Below are positions 1 to 63,981 of a stretch of 64,000 nucleotides of DNA, in pieces. Numbering within the stretch: the first letter of the stretch is position 1; every line of letters starts with the position of its first letter. The notes beneath the pieces are model-generated. The model saw only the letters and a list, made by a program, of their open reading frames with translations. It was not told the origin of the DNA and ran no database searches. This DNA comes from an uncultured euryarchaeote (GTDB lineage Archaea; Thermoplasmatota; Poseidoniia; Poseidoniales; Poseidoniaceae), in the NCBI GenBank assembly GCA_937915175.1, contig CALDNA010000023.1:4713-68712 (forward strand), given 5' to 3'. The position numbers were made by a program, and so were the translations under genes.

Positions 1-185
1 CAGGGAACCTTGACTCTAGAACATCCGCCGAAGTTCTCGCTTTGTTAAAACGAATCAATACGGAACACCAGACTACCTTCCTCATTGTAACGCACGATGC
101 CAGCATTGCTGAGTTGTGCGATCGAGTATTGCACATGGAAGACGGACTGATCATCAGCGATACATTGAGGACAGAGGAGGAATAG
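1..185 (+). CDS. ABC transporter ATP-binding protein, LolD/MacB-like (3' end only, truncated by window)
   Basis: Frame from nt 3 reads GNLDSRTSAEVLALLKRIN...FLIVTHDASIAELCDRVLHMEDG...EEE* (TAG 183-185). It shows the D-loop GNLD and H-loop VTHD of LolD-type ATPases. Not in the ORF track. Confidence 0.9.
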   Translation, partial: GNLDSRTSAEVLALLKRINTEHQTTFLIVTHDASIAELCDRVLHMEDGLIISDTLRTEEE

Positions 186-190
186 TCCTG

Positions 191-37023: not shown

Positions 37024-38379
37024 TCAGGCCATGAGGTCGTTTCGGCTTTCGCCACACAAATCTTGGCCTATGACTTCAGCCACAGTTTTGGCGTTTGAGA
37101 GTGCCCAATGTACCTTGACAATCACGGTTTCTGGCGCTGCAGCGCTTCCGTGGCCGAGGAGCCCCATCTCGATTTGCTTGCGCCCTTTCGAGTAGACATT
37201 CATATCGACGGGGCCATTGATGCATTGTGAGGTGACAACGATGGGGATTTCACGGTTTACGCACCGGGTGAGTGTTCGCCAGACTTTGGTGTTCTCAGGC
37301 GCGTCCTTTCCTGGATCATCGATGGGCAAATGGCCAAGACCAGTTCCATGAATCACGATGGCCTGAACGCCCGTTTGGACAACCGCCTCAATGTGTTCAG
37401 CATGCAACCATGGGCCTGCGACGAACTGCGCAATTCGAACACCGGTTTCGTATGAATCCGGACGTTGGGTCACAGTTCGGTCATTGTTTGATTGAAGCGC
37501 CTCGCTGTATCGAGGGTTGAGGGTGTGAGAAAGTTCCCCGTTGTCAATATGAACTGCACCCAACTGTTCACAGTTGACGGGTTGAAACGCATCGCGCCTC
37601 GATGAATGCATCTTTCGAGCGCCTGTGCCTGGGAGCACGGCACACATGCCATCGTTGGAACCTGCATGCATGACCACAACGGTGGCATCTCCAACTGCGC
37701 CAGTTGGTTTTGGACCGTTTGCGGCCCAATGAACGGCGCAGAGAAGGTTCTCTGCCGCATCAGATGAGCCCCTATCTGAAGAGCGCTGTGATCCGACAAA
37801 AGCGATTGGGCCGGGAGGTGTACCACCGCGGCCAGCCCAGGACATACCAACTGCTGCAGAAGAAACATGCAGCGTGTCGGTGCCGTGCGTTACAACAACG
37901 CCCACGCATCCATCATCGAAAGCTTTCTTCGAGGCTTGAACAATGGCGTTCCAGTGCTGAGGGCGGATGTCGTCGCTGAACATGTTTCCAAGTTTGACCG
38001 CCTCGATGTTTGCAATTTCTCGAAGTTCGGGGAGACTCGCCACCAATTCTTCGGGTTCAAATCTGGCAACAACGGCTCCAGTGGCGTAATCAACCTTTGA
38101 AGCGATGGTGCCGCCTGTGTGTAGTATTCGGACTTTAGGAAGGTCGCTTGATGCCTCAGCGGGTTCGGAGTGGACGGGCTGCACCGCTTGGTGTTGGCCT
38201 GTGACTTCAATCGATTGAACAGCCTCAAGTGGATAACTCGCATTGTAGCCATTCACCAGCTTCAGGGTGATGTGGTGGCGCGCAGCAGGATGGAGGACGA
38301 TGCCTTCAACCGTGGTCATTCCGTTGTGGCTTGCAACTTCGATTTTTACCCGTTCACCGGGCAGTGGTGCATCAACCAT
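37024..38379 (-). CDS. gatD: Glutamyl-tRNA(Gln) amidotransferase subunit D, ~451 aa
   Basis: LKLVNGYN N-domain, HTGGTIASKVDYATGAV, HGTDT, GSQRSSDRGSSD, RKMHSSRRDAF, GTGLGH, VYSKGR. Start moved to ATG 38379 (GGGAG upstream). Confidence 0.96.
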   Translation of the reverse strand: MVDAPLPGERVKIEVASHNGMTTVEGIVLHPAARHHITLKLVNGYNASYPLEAVQSIEVTGQHQAVQPVHSEPAEASSDLPKVRILHTGGTIASKVDYATGAVVARFEPEELVASLPELREIANIEAVKLGNMFSDDIRPQHWNAIVQASKKAFDDGCVGVVVTHGTDTLHVSSAAVGMSWAGRGGTPPGPIAFVGSQRSSDRGSSDAAENLLCAVHWAANGPKPTGAVGDATVVVMHAGSNDGMCAVLPGTGARKMHSSRRDAFQPVNCEQLGAVHIDNGELSHTLNPRYSEALQSNNDRTVTQRPDSYETGVRIAQFVAGPWLHAEHIEAVVQTGVQAIVIHGTGLGHLPIDDPGKDAPENTKVWRTLTRCVNREIPIVVTSQCINGPVDMNVYSKGRKQIEMGLLGHGSAAAPETVIVKVHWALSNAKTVAEVIGQDLCGESRNDLMA

Positions 38380-38471
38380 GAATCTCCCACCGGCCGAGGG
38401 CACATCAAGGGTTCGCCACTGCATGGCTCATCCGGGCCATTGAAGACGCTGAACGCTGATTGTAGATTGAA

Positions 38472-50108: not shown

Positions 50109-50147
50109 AGGGCATCTTTGATACAGGTTGAAGTGAAAGGGAGCGTC

Positions 50148-52787
50148 ATGCAGATGATAAAAAACAGGTTAGGAAAAAACCTCGTGTGTTTGATCCTTGT
50201 CGCCCTTTTTTGCGCCCAATCCTACCAACCACTTGCACCTGAACCCATGCTTGAATCGCCTCAAGATGTGGCGCATGCCGGCCCCGCTGCCCGCATTGCG
50301 ATCACCTCACCGGTCTACGCAATGACCGCTGATGAAGTGACCACATTCGAGGCTACATTGTACGATGCTGTCAACAGCATAGCCACTGGTCAAGTCAACT
50401 GGTCCAGTTCAAACGGCACCATCACCGAAGACGGCACGTTCTATCCATGGCAGGCTGGCTTAGTGAGCATTGAAGCGAGCAGTGGTGCACTCATGGATGT
50501 GTTTAACATCACCGTTAGCGCTGGTGTTGGACAAACTCTTGACATCACCACCTCAACCGCCCATGCTCTTGTGAGCACAACCCTCCAAGCCAACCTTCTC
50601 GATGCGAGGGGCAATTCAAAACCCGCAGAAAATGTGGTATGGACAATTGAGGGCGAGTATGTGGGCATCGGTACGCCACAATGGATCCCAACCGAACTTG
50701 GCGACGTGCAGATCAGAGCCCGCCTCAACCAAATGGAAGACAACGCAGTCGTCGAAGTTGTTGCCGGGGCACCTTACGCCTTCCTTTTCGAAGAAAATCT
50801 GCAAATTCGGAGCGGGGAATCAACCTACCTTCAAGTTCGATTGTTTGACCATAACGGTTACGAAATGAACAACACCGAGGCTGGTTACAAAACATGGACG
50901 GCTGAAAACGGCACCATGAGTCCAGTAGGGCGATACACTGCGACCTATCCTGGTGTGTGGAATTTGACGGTGGCAGCTGGCAATGCAACGGGTGTGGCTA
51001 CGATCCGAGTGGTACCCGCTGATGCATCGCTGTCTCAACTTACGGTGGTTCCCGAACTCGATGTCTATGTCGCAGGCCAAGCCTACGAACTTGTGACCAT
51101 GCGAACCGATTCAAACGGATACACCGGGGCATTCACGCCTCCATTGGCCAATTTCTCAACCACCAGTGGAGGCTTGGCTTTGGTAGACGGGCGAGTGCAT
51201 TGGACCCCTGGTGCAATGGGCCACCATCATTTGAACGTCATTGACGAGGGTGTCGCATCCTCGCTTGAAGTGACGGTGACCCATGGTGACGCTATCGATA
51301 CATCACTCAGCCTTGAGCCTGCGACGCTCCGTGCTGGTCTGCAAAACGTTCTCTCGTTCTATGCCATCGATGACGCAGGCAACCAGTGGCTTGTCAATGG
51401 GACGATGTCGCTGATCAGTGGCAATGCAAGTCATTTCACTCCTGATGAAGGCTATGCAACGCTTTCGCCTCTGGCGCTTGGTATTTGGCGCGTCGAGGCA
51501 TCATGGTACGACGCAACGTCCAACATCCGCTTTGAGAGTGCCTTCCAGCAGGAAGCACAAACTGGGCCATTAGCCTTCATCGAACTGAACGGTGCCAATC
51601 AAATTCTTGCTTCAGACACCTCCCTTGATTTGAGCCCGACCTTCTACGACGGATTCGGTAACGAATTGCCGCCCATTGGATTGAACTGGACGGTGGACGG
51701 CGAAGATGCGACCGTTGAATTGATGCTCGGTAACATGCACTGGACCCCCACCACAGTAGGCGGCCATGAAATTCGTGCGAATGCAGACGGCATCTTTGCC
51801 ACCATTCGCTTGACTGTTGTAGCGGGGGAAGCTCGAAACTTGGTCACCGACTATGAAAGCGGACTCACCGTCAGTGCAGGAATTCCCACAGAAGTGTTCG
51901 TGCAAGTGATTGACGCTCACGGAAACATGGCGCCTGCAACGAACGTCAGTCTCTTGCTTGACGAAGAAATTGGTGTGCTCGAAGCTTCACCATCTGGAAA
52001 CGGATACTGGGATTTTACCGGCCGTATCTCGGGCACATATAGCCTTGAACTCAGTCAAGCAAACGCCACACATTCGATCGACTTGCTGGTCCAGCCCGGT
52101 CAAGCAGTTCGTGTTCTCGCCGAACTTGACGGATTCGACATCGCCCAAGGCGACACCGTCCTTTTGCAACTCCAAGGCGTCGATGAATACGACAACATTG
52201 TGATCGTCGAACCTGAAAACACAACCGTATCCTGCACGGCTGGAAAGGCAAGTTACGTGACCTCAGATACTTGGGAACTTAAAGTCAACAGAGCAGGCGA
52301 CGATCGTTCTTGCACCGTCATATGGGACGACTTGATCACTCAACGATTTTTTGATGTCGAATCCGTTCTTCTTGGTGGCGCAGTTGGCTCCACCAACACC
52401 GCCATGACGCTTGCTTCGTTTTTGCTCGGGCTGATTTTAATCACCTTGGTTGTCCTTGTGCGTCGGGTCAACAGCGCGGAAGATGATGAATGGGTCGAAG
52501 ACGCATTCGAAGACGAAGACGCATTCGAAAACGAAGACGGAATAAATTCAGAAGCCGAAAATGAAGATACAACCGATTCCCAAAGCACCGACGAGGAGGT
52601 TCCACACACAGAGGGGCAATTGTCTGATGACCTCAAAGCCTCACTTGCCAAGAAGGCTGGAGAAGTTGGCGTTATGCAAGCAGCCCCAGGCACAGAACAA
52701 GGCCAATCTGGCTGGTACGTCGATGTAAGCAGCGAAGTCCAATATTGGAACGTCGGTGAAGACGGTTCGTGGTCCCGGGTGGATTGA
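50148..52787 (+). CDS. Membrane-anchored protein with eight Ig-like stalk repeats and an acidic/Trp-rich tail, ~879 aa; paralogous to the stalk of the upstream giant protein
   Basis: Signal peptide; repeats containing D..GN and ending V..G; WSSSNGTITEDGTFYP matches WSASNGTISSTGVFTP upstream; TM + RR. Start moved to ATG 50148. Confidence 0.82.
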   Translation: MQMIKNRLGKNLVCLILVALFCAQSYQPLAPEPMLESPQDVAHAGPAARIAITSPVYAMTADEVTTFEATLYDAVNSIATGQVNWSSSNGTITEDGTFYPWQAGLVSIEASSGALMDVFNITVSAGVGQTLDITTSTAHALVSTTLQANLLDARGNSKPAENVVWTIEGEYVGIGTPQWIPTELGDVQIRARLNQMEDNAVVEVVAGAPYAFLFEENLQIRSGESTYLQVRLFDHNGYEMNNTEAGYKTWTAENGTMSPVGRYTATYPGVWNLTVAAGNATGVATIRVVPADASLSQLTVVPELDVYVAGQAYELVTMRTDSNGYTGAFTPPLANFSTTSGGLALVDGRVHWTPGAMGHHHLNVIDEGVASSLEVTVTHGDAIDTSLSLEPATLRAGLQNVLSFYAIDDAGNQWLVNGTMSLISGNASHFTPDEGYATLSPLALGIWRVEASWYDATSNIRFESAFQQEAQTGPLAFIELNGANQILASDTSLDLSPTFYDGFGNELPPIGLNWTVDGEDATVELMLGNMHWTPTTVGGHEIRANADGIFATIRLTVVAGEARNLVTDYESGLTVSAGIPTEVFVQVIDAHGNMAPATNVSLLLDEEIGVLEASPSGNGYWDFTGRISGTYSLELSQANATHSIDLLVQPGQAVRVLAELDGFDIAQGDTVLLQLQGVDEYDNIVIVEPENTTVSCTAGKASYVTSDTWELKVNRAGDDRSCTVIWDDLITQRFFDVESVLLGGAVGSTNTAMTLASFLLGLILITLVVLVRRVNSAEDDEWVEDAFEDEDAFENEDGINSEAENEDTTDSQSTDEEVPHTEGQLSDDLKASLAKKAGEVGVMQAAPGTEQGQSGWYVDVSSEVQYWNVGEDGSWSRVD

Positions 52788-52930: not shown

Positions 52931-54613
52931 CTATTCCTCTTGTGAACTTGGTAATTCAATAATGCCTTCAATGGTCTGCATGAACTCATCGATGTCAATC
53001 ACACCATTTTCATCAGCGTCTGATTTGTGGAACACTTCCCTAAATTCATCGTTCGTGAACTCAACACCAAGGGCTTTGAGAGCGTTGATGAATTCAGGCA
53101 ATGTGAGGTGGTTCTTCTTGCCAAAGTCTGCAGCTAAGAAGGCCGCATGACGGAGGTCATGCTGAGCTTTTGTAGGGTTTGAGAATTTCTCTCTTAGGCT
53201 TTGAAACGGCGTGGTACGAACTTGACTATGCTTTTTTCCGTAACCGAGGTACGTGATGGTTCCAACGCTTACAGCAGTCCCTGCCCCGATGAATGCCTTG
53301 CTCCCCATGAGATAGATCAGAATGGCACCAGCCACGATACCCCACAATTGAATCCACGGGTAAAAGTGTGATTTGTACTCGGGCTTGTACCACGTTTGTG
53401 CACCAGGTGAGCGTCGGAGGATGATGACACACGAATTGATCAGCATGAAAATCATAATTTTGAATCCAGACGCAAGCTTTGCTACATCCTTGACGGGGAG
53501 GTACATAATGGCTAAGAGCATCATTACCCCTGTCACTATGATCGGCCAGTGTGGAGTTTCATACTTGGCATTCACCGTTTCTAAGGATTGAGGAAGCAGG
53601 TTGTCACGTGCCATTGCAAACAAGAACCTTGATGCTGCAAGAATGCCAGCGAGGGCCATTGAAATCATCGTCAAGACTGCCAAAGCAGCGGCCAGTACGC
53701 CAATTTTCGAGCCGGCAACAGCTTTGACAAATTGGTACACAGGGTCCTCGATCGGTGTCCCGTCTTTTATGTACCACATGTCAGGCAGGGCTGCCATCAT
53801 CACGAAGGTCATAACGCAGTAGAGGAAGGTTGCAATGCCCAAAGAGAGCATGATTCCCATTGGCAGGTTGCGCCCGGGTTCTTTCACTTCGCCACCAATC
53901 GCTGCAACCTTTGTCACGCCTGCATAGGCTACAAAGACAAATGCAGCGGTCTCGGCAATCGTTGCTGGTGATTGGTCAAACGCACCGTTTCCGCCGTTAA
54001 TCGGACGGGAGAAGTCCGTGCTGCCATCAAACAAGGCCATGATGCAAATGATTGCCAGAAGGGCCATAGTGACGCCGAGAATTGGAGTTTGAATCGCCTT
54101 TACCTTCTTGACGCCAAGAATATTGACAGCGGTGATAAGAACGAGTGCGGAAACTGAAACCATCGTGATTTCTCGCTCCCCAAGTGTGAACTCAAAATAA
54201 GTTGTCAAAGCCAGCATGTAGGCAGAGAATCCGATTAAGGCAAACGAGGCCTTGAGCAAAAATGATGCCCATAATCCAAGGCCGCTGATCGTTCCAAACA
54301 ACGGTCCATAGGTTCGTTCAAGGTAGACATAGGAACCGCCGCTAGAGGGCATGGCCGAGGCAAGTTCTGATTTGGAAAGGGCGCCGGGGAGCACAACTGT
54401 AGCAGCGAGTAAGAACGCCAACCAAATACCAGGACCCATCATTTCTGCGGCAAACGCAGGCATCACAAAAAGACCCGAGCCCAGCATCGAAGAAAGGGAG
54501 ATGATCACGATTCCCGAAAGACCGATGGTTCGTTCGATGGTTTGAGTGACATCATCGATGACGCCCTTAACATCCCCTTGGAGAAGTTTGCCTGCCGTAC
54601 TTTTCAAATCCAT
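52931..54613 (-). CDS. APC-family amino acid permease with a C-terminal EF-hand pair, ~560 aa
   Basis: SMLGSGLF, ELASAMPSSGGSYVY, FVAYAG, GEVKEPGRNLP, SRFLFAMARD; loops DFGKKNHLTLPEF and DADENGVIDIDEF. Confidence 0.9.
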   Translation of the reverse strand: MDLKSTAGKLLQGDVKGVIDDVTQTIERTIGLSGIVIISLSSMLGSGLFVMPAFAAEMMGPGIWLAFLLAATVVLPGALSKSELASAMPSSGGSYVYLERTYGPLFGTISGLGLWASFLLKASFALIGFSAYMLALTTYFEFTLGEREITMVSVSALVLITAVNILGVKKVKAIQTPILGVTMALLAIICIMALFDGSTDFSRPINGGNGAFDQSPATIAETAAFVFVAYAGVTKVAAIGGEVKEPGRNLPMGIMLSLGIATFLYCVMTFVMMAALPDMWYIKDGTPIEDPVYQFVKAVAGSKIGVLAAALAVLTMISMALAGILAASRFLFAMARDNLLPQSLETVNAKYETPHWPIIVTGVMMLLAIMYLPVKDVAKLASGFKIMIFMLINSCVIILRRSPGAQTWYKPEYKSHFYPWIQLWGIVAGAILIYLMGSKAFIGAGTAVSVGTITYLGYGKKHSQVRTTPFQSLREKFSNPTKAQHDLRHAAFLAADFGKKNHLTLPEFINALKALGVEFTNDEFREVFHKSDADENGVIDIDEFMQTIEGIIELPSSQEE

Positions 54614-54722
54614 TGTCAAACCCCGAAAAAGTACTGGTATTACACCAATAATCTATGGTAAACCACCAAATCATATAGGCTTGTGGAACAGTTCCCTTAG
54701 TGAGGCCCCGAAAAACGGAAAC

Positions 54723-56138
54723 TCAGTTTGACTTCGGAGCCTTGGCGATGACTTTCATCTCCACAGCAATGGGCGTTGGAAGGGCGCGAATGGCGAGCGT
54801 GGTCCTTGTTGGCCCCACTTTCCCAAGCGTGTTAGCCCAGACTTCATTGTAGCCGCTGAAATCCCGATCCATGTCGACAAGGAATGAAGTCACGTCTAGC
54901 ACATCTTCAATCGATCCACCAGCTTCTTCTAAGATTCTGGTGATGTTGTCAACAACGGCTTGGGTTTGAGCCTTGATGTCGTAGTTGAGGGGCTTGCCGT
55001 GCTCATCGCTAATCGGGCCACCGGGAATTGCGTTGGTGCCTGGTTGGCGCGGACCGACACCCGAGAGGTAGAGTAGATCGCCGACCCTACGAGCGTGGGG
55101 GTACATGCCGACTGGCTTTGGGGCTGCTTCGCTGTTGACGGAGTCTTGCCCAGTTGTTGGTTCCCACAGTGCGGGGCCTCCGCTTGCTTTTGGGGTGCTT
55201 TCGGTAATGGCTTCAGTTTCTTCTTCAGCATCGAGGACATTTCGTTCACCGGCGAAGTATTCGACATCGTCTTCGTCGTACTCTTTGTCACCAGCACCAG
55301 ATGCTGCCGGATCGAGGTGCACAACAGCACCTCCTGCGCCATGAATTGCTTCGTAGGCCAACACTTCACCCGTCAGATTATTTCTGTTGTCGTTCATGCC
55401 AGAAAGCCACCACATCGGTTTGAACGCAACGACCTTTTGAACGCGAATTTGTTGATGGATGGTGCGAGAAAGTTGCCCAACATCCTCAAGGCGGCCTTCG
55501 CCGAGGAATTCGAGAATTTTTCGGTTCCATTCATCGTCTTTTAGCGAGTGGATTTTGTCATCCTTTGGTTCAATTGGAGCGGTGAACATGCGGTTGGACA
55601 GCGACATTGCGGTCACAGCAACGGCTTTTCGTCCGGTTGCTTTGATTACATCGAGGCATGCTTTGGCCAAAACTGTCGTTTCGGAACGGTTGGCGTAGAC
55701 GTTTGATGAAACGATGACTGCAGGAATTGCGTTGTCTGGGTTGAGCAGTTTGAGCGCCACAACCGAGCCAACATCGATTGGAAATCCTGTGTAGTTGACC
55801 GTTCTTGATTTCAAGCCTCGCTTCTCGTTTGCCTCGTTCCATGCGTGAGCGAAATCAGCGTCGATGTTGAACGAGTAGGGGATTGAACCGAGGTCGTGAA
55901 AGTCGTCATCCACCATCACCCATTCGGGGTTTGGATTGGCTTGAATCTGATGGCCAATGATGCTCGGCCATGTGGTTGAGTAGATGATAAGAAGATCTGC
56001 ATCGGCGTCCTTAATCCGCTGCGCTGCCTCATCAAAAGCGTGACGCAAGCGCTGCCACCCTTCATTTTGTTCCGGGACTAAAACGGTGTGTGGGTGGACC
56101 GGTACAATGTAGGATCCGACAATTCTTCCTTCAGTCAT
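54723..56138 (-). CDS. Fusion of 2-aminophenol 1,6-dioxygenase alpha subunit (AmnA-like) and RidA-family 2-aminomuconate deaminase-like domain, ~471 aa
   Basis: N-part: YSTTW, VNYTGFPIDVG, SSNVY, DDEWNRKIL, HGAGGAVV. Acidic linker. C-part (54723-55139): APKPVGMYPHARRVGDLLYLSGVGPR, FLVDMDRDFSGYN, PTRTT, LPTPIAVEMKVIA. ATGA overlap with the upstream gene. Confidence 0.88.
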   Translation of the reverse strand: MTEGRIVGSYIVPVHPHTVLVPEQNEGWQRLRHAFDEAAQRIKDADADLLIIYSTTWPSIIGHQIQANPNPEWVMVDDDFHDLGSIPYSFNIDADFAHAWNEANEKRGLKSRTVNYTGFPIDVGSVVALKLLNPDNAIPAVIVSSNVYANRSETTVLAKACLDVIKATGRKAVAVTAMSLSNRMFTAPIEPKDDKIHSLKDDEWNRKILEFLGEGRLEDVGQLSRTIHQQIRVQKVVAFKPMWWLSGMNDNRNNLTGEVLAYEAIHGAGGAVVHLDPAASGAGDKEYDEDDVEYFAGERNVLDAEEETEAITESTPKASGGPALWEPTTGQDSVNSEAAPKPVGMYPHARRVGDLLYLSGVGPRQPGTNAIPGGPISDEHGKPLNYDIKAQTQAVVDNITRILEEAGGSIEDVLDVTSFLVDMDRDFSGYNEVWANTLGKVGPTRTTLAIRALPTPIAVEMKVIAKAPKSN

Positions 56139-57037
56139 TGCGATGCCTCCTTGTGATTTCTCTCTGGCCATTCGACAATTGCGTTGCCCGTTCCAATGAT
56201 GGTACCATAGCCGTGCAAGGTCGCTGGATAGGTTGGAACATCAAGGGTTGAGAGGAGCCATGAGAGTCCACCTCCATCGCTTTCTGCGATGGCTTGCTCG
56301 GTGAATTCAGGCATTTCATTGAGAATTCGTTGCGCTTGGCCGGTTCGGAAGTAATCGATCATTCGCATGTCCCAGAGGTGCATGGCGTGGCTTGTGATGT
56401 GCTCCTTGCTCATGTCTTCTGGAATGGCCGACTCGGTGGTAAAGTGGCGGTGTGAAAGGGAGTTGCTCGCAATAACGACCACCTTCTTGCCACTTTCCAA
56501 AATAGCTTCGCGGGTGACTTTGCCGAGTTCGATCATCATCTCTTGCATGACTTCGACCGAGTAGTAATCCCTTGAACGGTTGCTGGAGATGACCACAAGG
56601 GGTTTGTCCCATGCAGGGTTGAACATGTGTCCAGTGGTGATGGTGCCGTAGTCGACTCTGAAATCTGGATTCTCCATCATTTTCACGGCAAGCCCTGCTT
56701 CCGCTGCTTTGTCGTGGATTTTTGAAGTCAAATCAACGTCGATGTCGAGGTCATAGTGATAACGGAACAAGTTCGGAAACACCGGGTCCACGGACAGGCT
56801 TTTGAAATTTGGAAGGCCCAAAAAATGTGTACCAACATAAGTTTGCCAGTGCGGGGAAAGCAAAACGATAGCGTCGTATTCGACGTCTTTGAGTGATTCA
56901 CGCAACCGCTCATAACCCCAACGCAGTTGTTCCCAACCGCCTTCAGCAACAGGTTCGTTTTGAGGTGGATTTTCAGCATAGACCAAATGGGGCGGATGCG
57001 GGGCTAAGCAACCAGCAACGATTTCACCTTGGGTCAT
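56135..57037 (-). CDS. amnB: 2-aminophenol 1,6-dioxygenase beta (catalytic) subunit, LigB-type extradiol dioxygenase, ~300 aa
   Basis: GEIVAGCLAPHPPHLVYAENPPQNEP..GGWEQLRW, SPHW, SVDPVFPNLFRY, FRVDYGTITT, SNSLSH, PEDMSKE, AE, YGTIIGTGNA match AmnB/CnbCb as I recall them; His/His/Glu iron ligands retained. Start moved to ATG 57037. Confidence 0.9.
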   Translation of the reverse strand: MTQGEIVAGCLAPHPPHLVYAENPPQNEPVAEGGWEQLRWGYERLRESLKDVEYDAIVLLSPHWQTYVGTHFLGLPNFKSLSVDPVFPNLFRYHYDLDIDVDLTSKIHDKAAEAGLAVKMMENPDFRVDYGTITTGHMFNPAWDKPLVVISSNRSRDYYSVEVMQEMMIELGKVTREAILESGKKVVVIASNSLSHRHFTTESAIPEDMSKEHITSHAMHLWDMRMIDYFRTGQAQRILNEMPEFTEQAIAESDGGGLSWLLSTLDVPTYPATLHGYGTIIGTGNAIVEWPERNHKEASQ

Positions 57038-57138
57038 GGACAGAGCCAAGCGCTTGGTGGCTATATCGCCATCGGCGTTTCCACTGTTCAATCGCTTGAA
57101 GACCCAAGCCTCAAACAAGGGGGCGATTTGGCACTGTC

Positions 57139-57660
57139 ATGGAGGAGAGCACGACGGAACAAATCGCTGAAGTCCTCCTTGATTCACCTTCGCTAATGGA
57201 ATCGAAGCCAGTGAACCTCCTTGAAGATATCAAAACCGGGTTGAAGCACATCGTTTCTCCTGCCATCCTCGGGGCTCTTTTTGGCAGCGGTTGGCAGCGC
57301 TATGGATTGCCTAAGTTGGACTCAGTATTCGCACCAAATCCGGTTCAATTTGCACTTCTTTTCGCTTTACTCCTTACGCCGCTCATCTATCGGATCTTGG
57401 TTCACACGTCCTTTGCTCGATGCTTGGAATACAGCTTTGGATTTTCTGCATTAGCCCTTCCATTGTGCGTGGTCTGGCTGTCTGGTTGGGGGGCATTATT
57501 CTGTGGAATGTATGCCATTCTTCTGGCGTGGGTGTCAATTTCCATGATGTGGAGTCGAAAGCAGTTACCACCATTCTCGTACGGGATTTGGCACGCCATG
57601 GGCGTCGATTTGGGTGCCTTTGCGGGGGCCGTCGTGATGTACAACGCCCTTGGATTATGA
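57139..57660 (+). CDS. Hypothetical membrane protein, 173 aa
   Basis: Four to five hydrophobic segments; CTCAAA 29 nt upstream; fills the gap between amnB and panB. Confidence 0.7.
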   Translation: MEESTTEQIAEVLLDSPSLMESKPVNLLEDIKTGLKHIVSPAILGALFGSGWQRYGLPKLDSVFAPNPVQFALLFALLLTPLIYRILVHTSFARCLEYSFGFSALALPLCVVWLSGWGALFCGMYAILLAWVSISMMWSRKQLPPFSYGIWHAMGVDLGAFAGAVVMYNALGL

Positions 57661-58476
57661 GGTGTAACTTTCCGAGTCGCTCGGGAACTCACCAGAGCGA
57701 ACATCCTCGCAGTAACTTGTGATTGCGGTGTTGATGTCTTCAGCGAGGTTGAGGTAGCGTCGCAAGAACCGTGGAGAGAAGTCCATCGTGATTCCAAGTA
57801 GATCGTGGAGTACCAACACCTGACCGTCGCAGTCTGGACCGGCACCGATGCCGATGGTTGGAATTGAAATTTCTTCACTGACTCGCTTTGCCAATTCCCT
57901 TGGAATCTTTTCAAACACGATAGCGAAGCATCCTGCGGCTTCCAATAATTTAGCGTCGGCGATGAGTTTCTCTGCTTCTTCTTCCTCTTTGGCCCGGACA
58001 GTGTAGGTTCCAAACTTGTAGATGGATTGCGGTGTAAGTCCCAGATGGCCCATAACTGGGATCCCAGCGGTGAGAATGCGCTCGATGGACTGAATGATTT
58101 CAGAGCCTCCTTCGAGTTTAACAGCGTGGCCTTCTGCCTCCTTCATAATTCGAATGGCAGATTCAAGTGCGATTGCAGAATTGCCTTGGTAGGTTCCAAA
58201 TGGCATGTCAACCACAATAAGAGCACGGTCAACGGCTCGTTGAACGCACTGTGCGTGGTAGATCATGTGATCGAGGGTCATTGGCACGGTTGTGACTTGA
58301 CCAGCCATCACGTTTGACGCCGAGTCACCAACGAGGATGACATCCACACCCGCTTGGTCAACAAGTTTGGCCAATGAATAATCATAGGCGGTAAGCATGG
58401 TGATTTTTTCTTCAGCCCGCTTCATCTCAAGAAGCGTGTGCGTCGTCACCTTGCGCGCATTGCTGTGTACGGACAT
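57655..58476 (-). CDS. panB: 3-methyl-2-oxobutanoate hydroxymethyltransferase
   Basis: MLTAYD, LVGDS, DMPFG, VKLEGG, GHLGLTPQ, GIGAG, DGQVLVLHDLLG. Confidence 0.97.
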   Translation of the reverse strand: MSVHSNARKVTTHTLLEMKRAEEKITMLTAYDYSLAKLVDQAGVDVILVGDSASNVMAGQVTTVPMTLDHMIYHAQCVQRAVDRALIVVDMPFGTYQGNSAIALESAIRIMKEAEGHAVKLEGGSEIIQSIERILTAGIPVMGHLGLTPQSIYKFGTYTVRAKEEEEAEKLIADAKLLEAAGCFAIVFEKIPRELAKRVSEEISIPTIGIGAGPDCDGQVLVLHDLLGITMDFSPRFLRRYLNLAEDINTAITSYCEDVRSGEFPSDSESYTS

Positions 58477-58527
58477 GGTTCCCCCACAGTTTCAGGTGTT
58501 TTGAAACCCTCGCCGGCTCTTTCGTGG

Positions 58528-59256
58528 TTATTCTTCCTCGTAAACGCCAGATAATTGATGCATCAATTCAGCCAAGGCTTCCTCTTCATCGGCGCTTGCC
58601 AAAACTTGCTGCTTTGATTCAAGACCATTGAGCACTAAGGCTGCGACAGTGAATACCGAGTTTGGATCTTCGTCGACGACATGCTCGACGCGTTCAGCAA
58701 CCCATGAGTCGAGCACCTGTTCATCGATACGCAGCACCGCTCCAATTCGATTTAGCACTCCGTTGAGGACGTCTCTTAGCATGGTTTGATGGGTTGTGCT
58801 TATTGGTCCATTGCTCTCAGTATAGCGCACTTTGGCGGAGATATACAACTTCTGATGGGGGGAGGATTCGGGGATGTGCTCGAGGAGCGTTTGGAGGTCA
58901 GGGAACATTCCTTCTCCGGGCATCGCTGCCTCCATCGAGGGGTGTTCAAACGGAGGCAAGGCCGGTGCAATGACTTCTTCGATTGTAAAACGACGGCGCC
59001 CAACAATGGAAAGAAAGTGATTGCTTCCCTTGGTTTCATGCTCTAAGATTTCAGCCTCGCAACCATGAGTCCTTGGGCCGTCCCAGTGGTTTGTTGGCTC
59101 AAACGGATCGTTCATCACAAGCCCGAAGTTCTTGTTATCGAGCACACAATCATCGAGCATTTGCCTGTACCTTGGTTCAAACACCCTGAGTTCTTGGACC
59201 TCACCCGGCATGAGCACCATTGGCAGGACAAAAAGAGGAAGAGTTTCGCTTGACAT
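58528..59256 (-). CDS. Stand-alone LON peptidase substrate-binding (N-terminal, PUA-like) domain protein
   Basis: LPLFVLPMVLMPGEVQELRVFEPRYRQML, FGLV, GCEAEI, GRRRF, KQQVL. Confidence 0.88.
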   Translation of the reverse strand: MSSETLPLFVLPMVLMPGEVQELRVFEPRYRQMLDDCVLDNKNFGLVMNDPFEPTNHWDGPRTHGCEAEILEHETKGSNHFLSIVGRRRFTIEEVIAPALPPFEHPSMEAAMPGEGMFPDLQTLLEHIPESSPHQKLYISAKVRYTESNGPISTTHQTMLRDVLNGVLNRIGAVLRIDEQVLDSWVAERVEHVVDEDPNSVFTVAALVLNGLESKQQVLASADEEEALAELMHQLSGVYEEE

Positions 59257-59306
59257 GAATTGAGATTGGTCAAATTGCTTTTGAAGATGTGTTCACCAGC
59301 ACCGAA

Positions 59307-60758
59307 TCATTTCTGATTCATAACACAGACATTGGTGGTTTCTGAAAAGAATTCGAGCGACCATTGTCCACCCTCGCGGCCTACGCCAGAGTTCCTCACG
59401 CCACCGAAGGGTGTTCTCAAATCCCGATGAAGCCAGGTATTAATCCAGACAATTCCAGTTTCAATGGTTGCAGCGAGCGCTTGCCCCTTTTCGAGGTCTG
59501 CCGTCCAAATGGACCCAGCCAGACCGTACTCGGTCGCGTTTGCCATGACCGTCGCTTGTTCCATCGTTTCAAAGGTATGAACGGTGACGACAGGTCCAAA
59601 AATCTCCTCAGTAGCGCACCTCGAAAGGTGGCTTAAGCCTGAAACAACGGTCGGTGAAAGGTAGGCACCATCGGGGCTTGGTCCAATTGCACCGGTCATC
59701 GCACGTGTTCCACCTGTGAGGATTGTACCGCCTTCTTCGATGGCCAAATCAATGTAGGACTCTACTTTTTCGAGGTGATCCATAGAAATGAGGGTGCCAA
59801 TTTGGGAAGATGGTTCAATGGGGTTGCCGATTGTCATTGATTCCACTTCTGCCACGAACGCAGCAAGGAAGGTGGAGGCGATGGAGGCATGGACCAAAAT
59901 GCGGGATCCACACAGGCATACTTGGCCTGAGTTTGTGAACGCAGCACGGACTGCACCTTTCACGGCTTGGCCCATATCAGCATCCTCGAGGATAATCGTT
60001 GCGTTCTTTCCACCCAGTTCCAATGACAATTTTTTGAACAATGGTGCTGCAGTTGCGGCAACAATTCGACCGGTTGCGGTGCCGCCAGTGAAGGAAATTC
60101 CAGTTATCCTTTCGTCTTCTAAAATGGCTTGGCCGACTTCTGGGCCAAGACCGTGGACCATGTTGAACACGCCTTTGGGCAACTGCAATTCATCAAGTGT
60201 TTCGGCCAGAATGTTTGCTGTCAAGGGCGTCAATTCACTTGGCTTGGCAACGATTGCGTTGCCCATCAACAGCGCAGGAGCCACCTTCCAAGACAGGAGG
60301 TAAAGCGGCAGGTTCCACGGTGTGATGAGGCCAACAACGCCAAGTCCATTTCGATGAACATGGTTGATCGCATCGTCCATCTCAAACAGCATCGGTTTCT
60401 GTGAGCGTCCGAATTCTGCAAAGAATCTGAAGTTATCCACGCTTCGAGAGGCATCAACGCGTCGAGAAAGAGAAATTGGCTTTCCCGTATCCATCGTCTC
60501 AGCCTGAGCAATCGCTTCGTGCTTTTCCTGCAACGCATCTGCGATTTTATCAAGCCAAGCAGCGCGTTCTTTGAGGCTCAAGGCGTTCCAGGCCGGTTGG
60601 GCTTTTTTTGCAGCATCAGCTGCTAGTGTCACATCTGCTCGTTGAGAGCGTGGGATTGATGCCACAACCTTTCCAGTTGCAGGATTGTAATCCTCAAGAG
60701 TCTGCCCGTCGTTGGCGTTGACAAATGCGCCGTCGATGTAATTCATGAGGTGGTGCAA
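59307..60758 (-). CDS. Aldehyde dehydrogenase, 2-aminomuconate/2-hydroxymuconate semialdehyde dehydrogenase (ALDH8/AmnC-like), ~483 aa
   Basis: PWNLPLYLL, KPSE, FTGGT, LELGGKN, GQVCLCGSR, EEIFGP, WLHRDLRTPFGG..SG.GREGG. Start moved to TTG 60758 after GGAGG. Confidence 0.88.
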   Translation of the reverse strand: MHHLMNYIDGAFVNANDGQTLEDYNPATGKVVASIPRSQRADVTLAADAAKKAQPAWNALSLKERAAWLDKIADALQEKHEAIAQAETMDTGKPISLSRRVDASRSVDNFRFFAEFGRSQKPMLFEMDDAINHVHRNGLGVVGLITPWNLPLYLLSWKVAPALLMGNAIVAKPSELTPLTANILAETLDELQLPKGVFNMVHGLGPEVGQAILEDERITGISFTGGTATGRIVAATAAPLFKKLSLELGGKNATIILEDADMGQAVKGAVRAAFTNSGQVCLCGSRILVHASIASTFLAAFVAEVESMTIGNPIEPSSQIGTLISMDHLEKVESYIDLAIEEGGTILTGGTRAMTGAIGPSPDGAYLSPTVVSGLSHLSRCATEEIFGPVVTVHTFETMEQATVMANATEYGLAGSIWTADLEKGQALAATIETGIVWINTWLHRDLRTPFGGVRNSGVGREGGQWSLEFFSETTNVCVMNQK

Positions 60759-60760
60759 AC

Positions 60761-61876
60761 CTATGCCTCCACATCGTACAGCCAGCGGTCTTGGTCTGGA
60801 TCCCATTCATCCCATGTTGGCAGAGTTTCGAGGACTTCGAGGTACTTATCAGGAACGATTCCGGGAACAATGAAGGCCTTTTGCCTGTGGAGCGGGTATG
60901 GGTTTCTCAGGTTGATGCCGAGCACGCCGAGCAAAGCTCGTGCCACATACCATGTGGCTTGAGAATTCCAGCCATGCGCAATTTTGACGACAATCCCAAG
61001 ACCCTTGGGATAATCTGGATGTTCAATTGCTAAGCCCAACAAACCATCAGCGCCTTCCTTGGCGATGACCTTGCCTTCTCCTGCTTTGAGCACCGTAGAA
61101 TCCAATCGATTGAACCCGCCGACCAAATCAGGATGGCGCGTCATTGCTTCCCAAATCCAATCCTTGTCTTTGTCGCGAACCAAGCCAGCATAGATTTGAG
61201 CGAGTTCAGATACAGTGTTGGACACTGTAGGTAAGCCGCATCCATCCTTTGCCACGCGCAACGGTTGCCAGTCTGCGCCGAGGTAGGTTCGGATTTCGGC
61301 CATGTATGCGTGGAACACTTCGTGAGTTGGCAGGGTGTAACCGGCTCGATTCCAGCCTTTTTTCCGGCAGCCATGAAGGATGGCTGCGTGTTCACCAGAA
61401 CAGGTGTGGAACCAACGGCGTGGACGACGGACTTGCCGCCCAAATTGAATCAAGGGCACATCCAGCGGAGTGAGCATCAGCGGCCATTCTTCCTTAGCGA
61501 GTAAGGACTGTGCTGCTGCGACGTGTTCGGTATCACCGTTGTGGGATGCGACAGAGATTGCTTTCTGCTCCCATGTTGTGTCTTCAAGTTCTTTGGTGAA
61601 GGCTTTGAGCATGAACGGTTTCATCATCGACCGGCCATAGCAAAGGACATTTCCTCCAAATGAATGAATCACTTCGTCACCGTGCGCCCATGCCACAGCA
61701 CCGTGGATGGTGGTTTCAGAAACGCCGTTGCGGCGGTAATCAACAAGTGGCTCCCATGCCACTTCACGCCCGGTAGGGATGCCTTCGATCTTCTCGCCGA
61801 GTGGGCTGTCAGGATACAAGGCGCTGCCGGGTCTGCCCGGTTCAACAGCGGAAGGTGTATCATGCTCAATGGACAT
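60761..61876 (-). CDS. Asparaginase II (Rhizobium etli AnsA-type) family amidohydrolase with a variant motif
   Basis: RSMMKPF, ASHNG, HTCSGEHA (family motif NCSGKHA), DGCGLP, HPDLVGG, AKEGADG, GIVVKI. Confidence 0.85.
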   Translation of the reverse strand: MSIEHDTPSAVEPGRPGSALYPDSPLGEKIEGIPTGREVAWEPLVDYRRNGVSETTIHGAVAWAHGDEVIHSFGGNVLCYGRSMMKPFMLKAFTKELEDTTWEQKAISVASHNGDTEHVAAAQSLLAKEEWPLMLTPLDVPLIQFGRQVRRPRRWFHTCSGEHAAILHGCRKKGWNRAGYTLPTHEVFHAYMAEIRTYLGADWQPLRVAKDGCGLPTVSNTVSELAQIYAGLVRDKDKDWIWEAMTRHPDLVGGFNRLDSTVLKAGEGKVIAKEGADGLLGLAIEHPDYPKGLGIVVKIAHGWNSQATWYVARALLGVLGINLRNPYPLHRQKAFIVPGIVPDKYLEVLETLPTWDEWDPDQDRWLYDVEA

Positions 61877-61885
61877 CCAGACACC

Positions 61886-63133
61886 TCAATTGTTCAACTT
61901 GGCTTCGACGTGCGGTACAACTTGCTCCATGTAGGCCGTCATGTCTCTACAGACTCGATCTGAATCGTGGTTGAAGAAATCGAACCACGCCATAATGCGG
62001 TCTTCAGGATGGAAACGTTCGAGGATTTGCTGAGCCACTTCTTCCACGTTACCTATGAGAGCGTTGTTTGCGGCGTTGCTGACCTTGCTCGGATCGATGG
62101 TCCCTTCCAGTGCGTTCCAATACGCACCAAGCGCTTCATCAGCTTCTTTCCGTGCTGCTGCGCTTTGTTCTGCGGGCGACAACCCTGGTTCTGCGTTCAA
62201 GAACACAAAGGAGGTTCTCGGCATGTCGCTTCGTTGCCAAGCACCTCCTGCAGGGTGGAACACTTCGGCCATTCGAGCGTGCGTGGCTTCGATGACCTCT
62301 GGTTTAGTGATTGAAAGATTGAACACCTTAACGGGGAGGATGGTGTTGAGGAAGGTCTGGGCTTTCGGGTCGTGGGTCCCAGCAACGAGTTGCAAGAGTT
62401 CCTTGCGAAAGTCGGTTGGGATAATTTTCAAGTCCTCAAAGACGTAGCGCTTTGGTATTGTGATTTGATCAGGTTTGGATGTCAAGTTTTCAGCCTCAAC
62501 CGATGCCACTTGAACCCGTTCCCAATCTTCGTCTGAACGGAAGTTTGCGCGAGTTAACACCGTTTCATAGGTTTGCGTGGAATTGATGACATCGCCTCGC
62601 AACAAGCGAAGGAACACATCACCTGCTTCCATGAAAATTTGGCCTCGCAGTGCAGGCCAAGCAGCCTCTTCCACAGCGTTTCTTGGAACGATGCCGTATG
62701 GGCGAGCCATGAATTCAAAGCGACCTGCTGAAAATCCGACGTGCAACCTTCGCTGCTCATTTGGGTTGAGTCCGTGGAGTTGGAGGGTGTTTGCGATTCG
62801 CTCTGCTTGAGCAATTGGACCACCGGACGCTAAGATGGACACAACTGCGCTGCCGATTTCGATGCTCGATGTTCTTCGGAACGATTCCATGGCCAGTTGA
62901 GGGAAGTCCGTGCACAACCCGACTTCACCCTGCCAATGCGGGACTACAGGCCGAGCGTTGCTCTTTTGGGTCTCGGTTGAAAGGTGAGCCTGAGCGATCC
63001 ACCCAACACCAAAGCCGAGGCGGTCGGCGCACTCGAGTTGTTGGAAGTAATTGGTGAACATTTGATTCTCAGTTGGCACTTGACCCGCAGCGTCGGGGGT
63101 CTGGCTGATTGAGAAAAAGATGTCATGGTCCAT
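61886..63133 (-). CDS. Luciferase-like (LLM) flavin-dependent monooxygenase, ~415 aa
   Basis: ADRLGFGVGWIAQAH, TSSIEIGSAV, P...AERIA, RLHVGFSAGRF, ALIGNVEEVAQQI. Start is uncertain (63133, 63166 or 63169). Confidence 0.85.
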   Translation of the reverse strand: MDHDIFFSISQTPDAAGQVPTENQMFTNYFQQLECADRLGFGVGWIAQAHLSTETQKSNARPVVPHWQGEVGLCTDFPQLAMESFRRTSSIEIGSAVVSILASGGPIAQAERIANTLQLHGLNPNEQRRLHVGFSAGRFEFMARPYGIVPRNAVEEAAWPALRGQIFMEAGDVFLRLLRGDVINSTQTYETVLTRANFRSDEDWERVQVASVEAENLTSKPDQITIPKRYVFEDLKIIPTDFRKELLQLVAGTHDPKAQTFLNTILPVKVFNLSITKPEVIEATHARMAEVFHPAGGAWQRSDMPRTSFVFLNAEPGLSPAEQSAAARKEADEALGAYWNALEGTIDPSKVSNAANNALIGNVEEVAQQILERFHPEDRIMAWFDFFNHDSDRVCRDMTAYMEQVVPHVEAKLNN

Positions 63134-63210: not shown

Positions 63211-63981
63211 TCAGCGTTTTTCGTTGGAGGGATTGAAGTTTGTTAACGCCTCAATGCGCTCTCGCACGGCGATTGGCGTCGGTAAACCAGCGTTGATGAA
63301 GGCGTGAAGGCAATCCGACAGTTGGAGCATCGCCGTTTCATAGTCCTCTTCGATTTCAGCGATGTCCGCCAAGCCCCACCGAGCGACGAGTTGTCCCGAG
63401 AGATCTTCTAGGACAACCGCCAGTTCAAGCGACTGGGTGTACAAATCCTTTGCAGCATCAAACTGCCCCAAAGTTGCTTGACTGTGACCCATGTCAGCCA
63501 TGGCTTCCATTTGACCTTCTTCGTCCTTCATCTTCATCAGCAATTCGATGCGCCTCGACCCGTGAACCAAGGCGGTTTCGTGGTTGTGTTGTTTCTTGGC
63601 GAGAGCTTCTAGCAAGGCCAATCCGTAAACAATCCCATTTTCATCCTTGATCGCCTCTCGCAGGCGCACTGAACGGCTGGCAAACATTTGTGCTTCCTCG
63701 TAGGCTTCATTGGCCAGGTGGAGCAGCGCTACGTGGTGTGCCATGGCTGCAGCAAGCGATTCAGCACCCACCATTGTCTCAGCATGAGCGGTTAATTCAG
63801 CAAGTTTTTCGATCGGAGCCTCTTCGATTTTGAGTTGTTCAAAGGTTGCCCAACCAGATTCAATTTCATCTGCTGCGTTTGTCTTGGCATGAGCGAGCAA
63901 CTGTTCTGCAAGCGCTTCGTCTTCCAATTCCAAAGCGAGGGGAATAAGCCGGAGGGCGAGGGGGGTGTTGATGTCCTCCAT
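63211..63981 (-). CDS. Tetratricopeptide-repeat protein, 256 aa
   Basis: Helical repeats such as AMADMGHSQATLGQFDAAKDLYTQSLEL and ARWGLADIAEIEEDYETA; SD GGGGGAG. Confidence 0.8.
   Translation of the reverse strand: MEDINTPLALRLIPLALELEDEALAEQLLAHAKTNAADEIESGWATFEQLKIEEAPIEKLAELTAHAETMVGAESLAAAMAHHVALLHLANEAYEEAQMFASRSVRLREAIKDENGIVYGLALLEALAKKQHNHETALVHGSRRIELLMKMKDEEGQMEAMADMGHSQATLGQFDAAKDLYTQSLELAVVLEDLSGQLVARWGLADIAEIEEDYETAMLQLSDCLHAFINAGLPTPIAVRERIEALTNFNPSNEKR

Follow-up and report, generated by a model that had tools for sequence, protein, structure and literature searches.

A gene cluster of Marine Group II archaea with a probable role in kynureninase-independent tryptophan catabolism

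The classical kynurenine pathway carries tryptophan to 2-aminomuconate through tryptophan 2,3-dioxygenase (TDO), kynurenine formamidase (KynB), kynurenine 3-monooxygenase (KMO), kynureninase, 3-hydroxyanthranilate dioxygenase (3-HAO), 2-amino-3-carboxymuconate-6-semialdehyde (ACMS) decarboxylase (ACMSD) and 2-aminomuconate-6-semialdehyde dehydrogenase (AMSDH). Bacteria with amn, nba or cnb clusters, which we take to be represented by Pseudomonas sp. AP-3, P. pseudoalcaligenes JS45 and Comamonas CNB-1, obtain their aminophenol from nitrobenzene or chloronitrobenzene by way of a nitroreductase and a mutase. A third precedent is that of Pseudomonas fluorescens ACB, in which 4-hydroxyacetophenone monooxygenase (HAPMO) and an aryl-ester hydrolase subject an aryl ketone to Baeyer–Villiger oxidation and ester hydrolysis, the resulting phenol then undergoing ring cleavage. 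Here we analyse a stretch of 64,000 nucleotides (nt), hereafter the window (C23:4713–68712), from the genome of an uncultured euryarchaeote of the family Poseidoniaceae (2.04 Mb, 68 contigs, 92.5% complete), in keeping with which the nearest homologues of the window proteins bear the names Candidatus Poseidoniaceae or Poseidoniales; its order, the Poseidoniales, is also called Marine Group II (MGII), and the sister family of the Poseidoniaceae is MGIIb. On its minus strand the window carries a divergent luciferase-like monooxygenase (LLM) and a class-3-asparaginase-like hydrolase (AnsII), together with predicted genes for the cleavage of 2-aminophenol, and we think that the region probably forms the middle section of a tryptophan catabolism that does without kynureninase and is core to MGII.

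The locus has its ring-cleavage genes in common with the amn/nba/cnb clusters: AmnB, AmnA, AMSDH and the RidA-type deaminase are homologous and follow the same neighbourhood logic (Protein Data Bank (PDB) entries 8ihg, 3vsg, 7txy, 4i1w and 6izh). It differs in what stands upstream, which in the archaeal set is TDO, a formamidase, LLM and AnsII in place of nitroreductase and mutase, in the fusion of archaeal AmnA to the deaminase, and in that no archaeal 4-oxalocrotonate decarboxylase, hydratase or aldolase was seen. The kynurenine pathway and the archaeal set both start with TDO and kynurenine formamidase, and both converge on 2-aminomuconate semialdehyde, its dehydrogenase and deamination. 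In between, however, the proposed route would bypass KMO, kynureninase, 3-HAO and ACMSD; the side chain would exit as aspartate and not as alanine, no ring carbon would be lost as CO2, and there would be no ACMS, hence no branch point towards quinolinate and NAD. In its proposed logic, an aryl-migration Baeyer–Villiger oxidation followed by aryl-ester hydrolysis, the route resembles the HAPMO system, but HAPMO is a single-component FAD/NADPH type I Baeyer–Villiger monooxygenase (BVMO) that works with an esterase, whereas here a member of the LLM superfamily, to which the type II enzymes belong, would work with a homologue of class-3 asparaginases.

The genes at the centre of this proposal, called from an open reading frame (ORF) list with Pfam and NCBIfam, are the following, in the direction of their reading:

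61886–63133, minus strand: LLM, a divergent luciferase-like monooxygenase, assigned from its relatives and its fold
60761–61876, minus strand: AnsII, a class-3-asparaginase-like hydrolase (PF06089, E = 5.8e-48)
59307–60758, minus strand: aldehyde dehydrogenase (ALDH), predicted AmnC-type (PF00171, E = 7e-161)
56135–57037, minus strand: predicted AmnB, of the LigB superfamily (PF02900, E = 1.2e-20; PDB matches)
54723–56138, minus strand: predicted AmnA::RidA fusion (LigB::RidA; PDB matches)

Junctions were read straight from the sequence. A gap of 9 nt separates the stop codon of LLM from the ATG of AnsII, and 2 nt separate the TAG of AnsII from an in-frame TTG at 60758, taken as the ALDH start; the alternative start, an upstream ATG at 60806, would make ALDH overlap AnsII by 46 nt. 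AmnB and AmnA::RidA overlap in an ATGA. The LLM reading frame is open up to 63169, and the start in homologues is the Met at 63133. An annotation made initially from the DNA alone had named these genes, their places on one strand, both gaps and the overlap, all of which are present in the sequence.

AmnB matches the β subunits of 2-aminophenol 1,6-dioxygenase over residues 28–320 (8ihg_A, E = 1.6e-106; 3vsg_B, E = 2.3e-104), and the positions of CnbCb His13, His62, His195 and Glu251 are all identical in its alignment to 3vsg_B. We take His13, His62 and Glu251 to be the iron ligands and His195 the catalytic histidine, and predict that AmnB is the catalytic β subunit of such a dioxygenase. Its presumptive partner is composite. 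The N-terminal part of AmnA::RidA matches the α subunit 3vsg_A (E = 2.6e-37) and has Thr at the His62-equivalent site, as expected of a non-catalytic subunit, and the C-terminal part is closest to the 2-aminomuconate deaminase 6izh (E = 7.2e-26, against 4.4e-18 for the best generic RidA); the protein is therefore read, on sequence similarity, as a putative non-catalytic α subunit fused to a RidA-family 2-aminomuconate deaminase. For ALDH, the top six PDB matches are all AMSDHs (E = 1e-133 to 3.5e-131). It scores under every NCBIfam equivalog cut-off, the best being TIGR03216 (2-hydroxymuconic semialdehyde dehydrogenase; 529 bits against a cut-off of 693), with none of the AMSDH-specific NCBIfam models above its cut-off, and the PDB matches point to an AmnC-type AMSDH.

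LLM owes its assignment to PF00296 matches in its relatives and to its fold, not to matches of its own sequence. The window protein gave no Pfam match at E ≤ 0.01 and none among PDB sequences, its sole NCBIfam match being TIGR04027 (E = 0.0026, 16.8 bits). PF00296 was found in 14 of 19 aligned members of its family (best E = 2.5e-15), and an AlphaFold2 model (predicted local distance difference test score 90.2) submitted to Foldseek retrieved LLM TIM barrels with probability 1.00 and E values down to 1e-15, including luciferase (LuxA, 1luc), alkanesulfonate monooxygenases and the type II Baeyer–Villiger enzyme 3,6-diketocamphane monooxygenase (4uwm). The model thus points to a divergent luciferase-like flavin monooxygenase. 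With type II BVMOs and luciferase (4uwm, LuxA) it shares the TIM-barrel LLM fold and, as proposed here, flavin-peroxide chemistry on a carbonyl; it differs from them in a structural-alignment identity of 12–17%, in reaching no Pfam LLM threshold and in belonging to a small separate family (311 of 1.84 billion cluster representatives at E ≤ 0.001). One representative of that family, P0126 (1501 amino acids (aa)), is fused to class-I glutamine amidotransferase and ApbE flavin-transferase domains. The F420 ligase CofE was not found in this genome, so an FMN oxygenase fits LLM better than an F420 reductase. The initial annotation had reported no flavin reductase in the window; one gene with a Flavin_Reduct domain lies elsewhere in the genome. 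Type II BVMOs belong to the LLMs, and luciferase attacks a carbonyl with a flavin peroxide; by analogy, we propose that LLM may be a Baeyer–Villiger monooxygenase of kynurenine or N-formylkynurenine.

AnsII scores 164 bits against PF06089, whose cut-off is 25, and matches the structures of the Rhizobium etli class-3 asparaginase (ReAV) as a distant relative (E = 4e-16). Both share the PF06089 fold and ten conserved catalytic-site residues: R82, S83, K86, S111 and K273 of the window protein correspond to ReAV Arg47, Ser48, Lys51, Ser80 and Lys263, and C159, C213, H163, Y180 and D211 to Cys135, Cys189, His139, Tyr156 and Asp187, the same ten positions being kept in all nine aligned relatives. 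The part of the ReAV account drawn on here describes a β-acyl-enzyme mechanism in which Lys51 is the base and Ser80–Lys263 a proton shuttle, Arg47 anchors the α-carboxylate of the substrate L-Asn, and Cys135, Lys138 and Cys189 are the zinc ligands (PMC12292245). In the phylum, PF06089 proteins are of two kinds: canonical ones (E of about 1e-92 to 1e-117, profile positions 1–321), which are never adjacent to LLM, and an LLM-linked kind (E = 1e-41 to 1e-51, profile positions 1–295), which always is. By these scores the window AnsII would fall outside the canonical asparaginase subgroup and into a separate, LLM-linked one. We propose that it is a hydrolase of a β-aspartyl 2-aminophenyl ester or 2-hydroxyanilide, yielding L-Asp and 2-aminophenol. 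Its differences from ReAV would then extend from the distant match, a Lys138-to-Glu exchange in Poseidoniales and the fusion of bacterial forms to kynurenine formamidase to the substrate, an N4-aryl or O-aryl β-aspartyl compound and not asparagine. The window also encodes a member of the classical asparaginase/glutaminase family (37024–38424, minus strand; PF00710 and PF17763; 466 aa) that is unrelated to the PF06089 gene.

The pairing of these two genes extends well beyond the window. Metagenomes scanned with an alignment of distant LLM relatives (A3) yielded 46 bacterial-looking loci in two groups, A and B, and with these included LLM is followed directly by AnsII in 117 of 120 informative loci from four lineages: 78 of 80 loci in MGIIa (2 uninformative), 10 of 10 in MGIIb, 18 of 25 in bacterial group A (AnsII elsewhere in the locus in 2, none in 1, 4 uninformative) and 11 of 21 in bacterial group B (10 uninformative). 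In a phylum sample of 201 Thermoplasmatota genomes, LLM was found in 38, AmnB in 40, TDO in 59 and PF06089 in 76. AmnB, PF06089 and TDO accompany LLM in every one of the 38 carriers; LLM and AmnB are restricted to the same five families, and AmnB occurs without LLM only in genomes G036 and G005.

Five of the LLM carriers, from three families, lie outside the Poseidoniales (G406, G294, G380, G371 and G301), and all five have compact single-strand operons. That of G294 (L159) reads TDO-LLM-AnsII-ALDH-AmnB-AmnA::RidA-Cyclase (PF04199, KynB)-SDR, the last gene encoding a short-chain dehydrogenase/reductase (SDR); that of G406 reads TDO-SDR-LLM-AnsII-ALDH-AmnB-AmnA-RidA-(Formyl_trans_N-like), with 4-nt overlaps, and G380, G301 and G371 have variants of these arrangements. 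AnsII is followed directly by ALDH in all five operons and ALDH by AmnB in four (L159, L160, L161 and L163); AmnA and RidA are fused in four and split in G406. PF04909, the ACMSD family, was seen in none of the archaeal or bacterial operons examined. The initial annotation had suggested that LLM and AnsII form an upper route feeding an o-aminophenol to AmnBA, ALDH and RidA, and that they should recur with amnBA and ALDH in other genomes. The adjacency counts, the outside operons and the complete overlap among LLM carriers bear out the second suggestion, and comparative genomics of this kind argues for the first.

Bacterial group B adds a physical link to tryptophan degradation. Here the AnsII downstream of LLM is fused to a PF04199 kynurenine formamidase (confirmed with Pfam in L127, L120, L129 and L133), and the alignment of the fusions reveals, in the formamidase part, an HxGTHxDxPxH-like motif, presumably that of kynurenine formamidases. 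PF06089 and PF04199 occur together in 114 of 120 relatives among the matches listed; the fusion relatives are named as Bdellovibrionota, 'Deltaproteobacteria' and Pseudomonadota and labelled 'asparaginase', 'arylformamidase' or 'kynurenine formamidase'. TDO stands just beyond the fusion in 8 of 8 loci of sufficient length. Directly upstream of LLM, L127 and L134 carry AmnB-AmnA-RidA-ALDH plus two genes of the fumarylacetoacetate (FAA) hydrolase family, both of the 4-oxalocrotonate decarboxylase/hydratase type, and L126 holds the ALDH-FAA-FAA-LLM portion of this arrangement. Tryptophan and kynurenine had been among several candidate substrates put forward initially, and the TDO-containing operons and the formamidase fusions narrow these to kynurenine or N-formylkynurenine. 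In group A, an Amidohydro_1 gene (437–448 aa) lies a few kb from LLM-AnsII in 12 of 25 loci (L095, L097, L099–L107 and L109), and a pseudouridine synthase of the RluD type follows AnsII in each of the six that were annotated.

In the genome of the window, the TDO gene (E = 1.7e-59) is on contig C6, where genes of heme A/O synthesis adjoin it. Kynureninase and the ACMSD family (PF04909) were not found in this genome, and neither was 3-HAO, although the control for that family gave no match in any genome; at 92.5% completeness, each of these absences means 'not found' and is not proven. With TDO present and these three not found, kynurenine would be made and no conventional onward route was found for it. 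The initial annotation had proposed a check of the genome for such enzymes; this recovered TDO, and did not recover KynB (PF04199), kynureninase, ACMSD or 3-HAO. The genome has one FAD_binding_3 gene, possibly a KMO. Since this genome would make N-formylkynurenine and the ring-cleavage genes would start at 2-aminophenol, the ever-paired LLM and AnsII would have to bridge the gap between the two.

Chemical reasoning suggests how. Kynurenine is an aryl ketone with a 3-carbonyl-alanine side chain, and its electron-rich o-aminophenyl group should favour aryl migration. The Baeyer–Villiger product of kynurenine would be a β-aspartyl derivative and would thus contain the class of bond that asparaginases cleave. 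In the route that we propose, TDO would open the indole ring of tryptophan to give N-formylkynurenine, and a formamidase would convert this to kynurenine. LLM, with reduced FMN and O2, would carry out a Baeyer–Villiger oxidation with aryl migration to L-aspartate 4-(2-aminophenyl) ester, which could undergo an O-to-N acyl shift, the free amine capturing the acyl group, to N4-(2-hydroxyphenyl)-L-asparagine. AnsII, as a Ser-Lys hydrolase, would grip the aspartyl α-carboxylate and form a β-aspartyl-enzyme, from which 2-aminophenol would leave first and L-aspartate second. AmnBA would then cleave 2-aminophenol to 2-aminomuconate semialdehyde, the AmnC-type ALDH would oxidize this to 2-aminomuconate, and the RidA domain on AmnA would deaminate it to 4-oxalocrotonate. 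What the comparisons show is the identity of the genes, their linkage, the fusions and the co-occurrence; we infer the two new reactions, their place after deformylation, which formamidase acts in this genome and what becomes of 4-oxalocrotonate. That the gene set serves tryptophan or kynurenine catabolism via an o-aminophenol we regard as very likely; for Baeyer–Villiger oxidation and β-aspartyl hydrolysis specifically, the balance tips in favour, and by less.

Several observations weigh against this reading. The compared genomes are related to one another, so that they amount to about five or six independent lineages and not to hundreds. Within the Poseidoniales, the genes are nearly universal (LLM in 240 of 251 genomes, AmnB in 238 of 251, TDO in 119 of 121), so that their co-occurrence in the order is uninformative, and TDO is unlinked to the gene set there. 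AmnBA was not within 10 kb of LLM in ten MGIIb loci, and nor were panB and the permease that adjoin the set in the window; in the other MGIIb genomes G002, G015, G017 and G029, AmnB lies 3–7 kb from LLM on the same contig. Three Poseidoniales genomes depart from the pattern: in G005 (96% complete), AmnB and TDO occur without LLM or PF06089, G036 has AmnB, PF06089 and TDO with LLM not found, and G025 has PF06089 and TDO with LLM and AmnB not found. Of the 17 genomes of one genus, moreover, AmnB was found in 11 and LLM in 16. Gaps in metagenome-assembled genomes may lie behind these exceptions. In bacterial group A, LLM-AnsII stands in housekeeping surroundings with no TDO or Amn genes nearby. 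As for the proteins, the solved structures closest to LLM share just the 12–17% identity given above and are mixed in function, and its Baeyer–Villiger role would follow from chemical logic and the presence of type II BVMOs in the LLM superfamily, and not from diagnostic residues. The ReAV zinc ligand Lys138 is Glu162 in the window AnsII; the site reads CSGEH in both Poseidoniales AnsII aligned and CSGKH in 8 of 8 bacterial homologues. Finally, this genome (92.5% complete) yielded no PF04199 formamidase, a tblastn search of it found no homologues of the bacterial 4-oxalocrotonate decarboxylase/hydratase, and DmpG was not found in it.

The alternative that survives best, though we hold it to be unlikely, keeps the enzymes and changes their order: LLM would act on N-formylkynurenine, AnsII on the 2-formamidophenyl β-aspartyl ester and the formamidase last, on 2-formamidophenol. 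The bacterial AnsII::arylformamidase fusion would then join consecutive steps, the N-formyl group would block the O-to-N acyl shift, and the distal position of the Cyclase gene in archaeal operons, past AmnA::RidA, would fit. Fused domains need not act in consecutive steps, however, and PF04199 enzymes carry the annotation of N-formylkynurenine formamidase.

An analogue of the conventional route seems improbable to us. LLM would here be a KMO-like C3 hydroxylase and AnsII a substitute for kynureninase, with AmnBA, instead of the cupin 3-HAO, cleaving 3-hydroxyanthranilate, a compound that is also an o-aminophenol. In its favour, neither kynureninase nor 3-HAO turned up in this genome, and the conventional route shares the ALDH and the deaminase. 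Such a route needs an ACMS decarboxylase, yet the genome and the operons yielded no PF04909, and kynureninase performs a pyridoxal phosphate-dependent C–C cleavage, a poor fit for a Ser-Lys amidohydrolase in which the Arg47 that binds asparagine is conserved. The initial annotation had raised the replacement of 3-HAO by the LigB-type enzyme, which is disfavoured because no ACMSD-family gene was found and because AmnB is very close to enzymes characterized on 2-aminophenol.

We give still less credence to the notion that LLM, AnsII and the SDR work downstream of ring cleavage, as an archaeal replacement for the lower meta-pathway. The archaea in which neither 4-oxalocrotonate decarboxylase/hydratase homologues nor DmpG were found would gain a lower route in this way, and in Poseidoniales LLM-AnsII-ALDH stay joined while AmnBA may be unlinked. 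But bacterial clusters that possess both FAA-hydrolase-family lower genes (L127, L134 and L126) still keep LLM-AnsII, the fusion partner of AnsII is an upper-pathway enzyme and its neighbour is TDO, no amide would be left to hydrolyse after deamination, and the gap from kynurenine to aminophenol would go unexplained. Least credible of all is that the Amn genes serve xenobiotic aminophenol or nitroaromatics, with LLM and AnsII mere syntenic neighbours and AnsII a plain asparaginase: the whole region is indeed syntenic in Poseidoniaceae, panB and unrelated genes included, but the same pairing and clustering are found in five or six deeply separated lineages whose other neighbouring genes differ, a heterotroph of the oligotrophic ocean counts these genes among its core, and canonical PF06089 proteins (E of about 1e-100) never accompany LLM, whose linked form scores 1e-41 to 1e-51.

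If, as we favour, LLM and AnsII convert kynurenine to 2-aminophenol, the steps on either side may involve genes just outside the window. An SDR gene (adh_short_C2; C23:69830–70606, minus strand; L164:2031–2807) starts 1.1 kb past the window end and is orthologous (48–51% identity) to the SDR inside 5 of 5 outside operons; in MGIIb, the SDR immediately precedes LLM in 10 of 10 loci. The bacterial loci have no such gene and carry the decarboxylase/hydratase pair instead. The relatives of the SDR in the PDB are generic FabG-like proteins only. The SDR is probably a member of the gene set, and our guess is that it acts on 4-oxalocrotonate or 2-aminomuconate, or else serves LLM. The single FAA_hydrolase gene of this genome (C52, 217 aa) was considered as a lower-pathway enzyme and rejected, having no match to the bacterial 4-oxalocrotonate decarboxylase/hydratase genes.

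The gene beside the SDR varies by lineage. It is a Cyclase/KynB gene in G294 (L159:3935–4648), G380 and G371; a 240-aa Formyl_trans_N-like protein in 10 of 10 MGIIb loci (for example L084:7857–8579), which is also the protein encoded at the end of the G406 operon; and a 258-aa α/β hydrolase in 56 of 80 MGIIa loci and in this genome (L164:2887–3663). From these positions we infer that the SDR-adjacent hydrolases may be non-orthologous deformylases of N-formylkynurenine, one of which would be the formamidase here. The MGIIa α/β hydrolase was tried as an Afmid-type kynurenine formamidase and that assignment was dropped: its best PDB match is a generic carboxylesterase (E = 3e-18), no kynurenine formamidase matched, and the role is a positional guess. 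The window also encodes a formate–tetrahydrofolate ligase (26922–28637, minus strand; PF01268, E = 2e-240), 25 kb from the cluster, which could conceivably assimilate formate from N-formylkynurenine. Put together, the full proposition is that tryptophan degradation in MGII, in certain other Thermoplasmatota and in several bacterial lineages follows a hitherto unrecognized branch of the kynurenine pathway defined by the LLM and AnsII activities, with the side chain going to aspartate and the ring to 2-aminophenol, the deformylase position filled three times by unrelated enzymes (KynB cyclase, MGIIa α/β hydrolase and MGIIb Formyl_trans_N-like protein) and the SDR replacing the lower meta-pathway; we give this combination an even chance.

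Interspersed with and flanking the cluster genes in the window are five others:

63211–63981, minus strand: weakly TPR-like protein with sub-threshold TPR matches only, directly upstream of LLM
58528–59256, minus strand: LON-substrate-binding-domain protein (Pfam)
57655–58476, minus strand: panB (Pfam, NCBIfam)
57139–57660, plus strand: predicted membrane protein of 173 aa, from its hydrophobic segments
52931–54619, minus strand: APC amino-acid permease (PF13520, E = 3e-44) with a C-terminal EF-hand pair (EF-hand_7, E = 2e-8)

The order LLM-AnsII-ALDH-panB-AmnB-AmnA::RidA is kept in 55 of 55 loci with at least 7 kb downstream, among 80 MGIIa species-genome loci, the LON-domain gene being missing from 17 of the 55. 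Unrelated neighbours, panB included, are as syntenic in MGIIa as the pathway genes, so synteny in the Poseidoniaceae is by itself weak evidence. In MGIIb, LLM-AnsII-ALDH stand together in 10 of 10 loci, one of them with a 5-kb insertion. The TPR-like gene, whose ORF could reach 307 aa and runs past the window end, is kept upstream of LLM in MGIIa loci; in MGIIb that place is taken by the SDR, which borders directly on LLM. That panB, the LON-domain gene and the membrane gene (57139–59256) interrupt the cluster had been seen initially; because ALDH abuts AmnB in other Thermoplasmatota operons, we judge these three to be lineage-specific insertions, confined to the Poseidoniaceae and outside the pathway.

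Next to the set in many MGIIa loci, the permease did not turn up in the MGIIb loci, in the operons of the other archaea or in the bacterial loci. Uptake of tryptophan or kynurenine is a possible role for it, and its membership in the gene set is uncertain. An EF-hand pair at the C terminus is an unusual combination for a prokaryotic transporter. Metatranscriptome contigs (four libraries, two studies) match pieces of the cluster at 95% identity or more, namely AmnA::RidA, AmnB, the panB/LON stretch, AnsII, LLM and the TPR gene; none lies over the ALDH stretch 59350–60279, which proves nothing. These contigs are compatible with transcription of most cluster genes; DNA carry-over is possible, and level, strand and co-transcription lie outside what contig data report. 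Elsewhere in the window are very large ORFs, all on the plus strand: 8512–22065 (4517 aa), 40956–50108 (3050 aa, with three CBM96 modules), 116–4792 (1558 aa, with FtsX/MacB permease domains) and 50118–52787 (889 aa).

A full-text literature search, with subscription journals and supplements outside its scope, found no paper linking kynurenine to 2-aminophenol via these enzymes and no mention of amn genes or TDO in Poseidoniales. The route would be a kynurenine-pathway branch assembled from known superfamilies in which two predicted enzyme activities, a kynurenine Baeyer–Villiger monooxygenase and a β-aspartyl-aryl hydrolase, would be new additions, the latter giving the LLM-linked branch of class-3 asparaginases its first physiological role. 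Members of the gene set currently carry the automatic labels 'asparaginase', 'arylformamidase', 'luciferase' and 'hypothetical', which the pathway reading would correct if true. It would also explain why archaea of the pristine ocean have 2-aminophenol dioxygenase genes otherwise known from nitroaromatic degraders, and suggests a natural origin for amn genes that were later recruited for xenobiotics. In the surface ocean, Poseidoniales rank with the most abundant heterotrophic archaea, and a sizeable share of marine tryptophan turnover would then run through a route missing from pathway maps.

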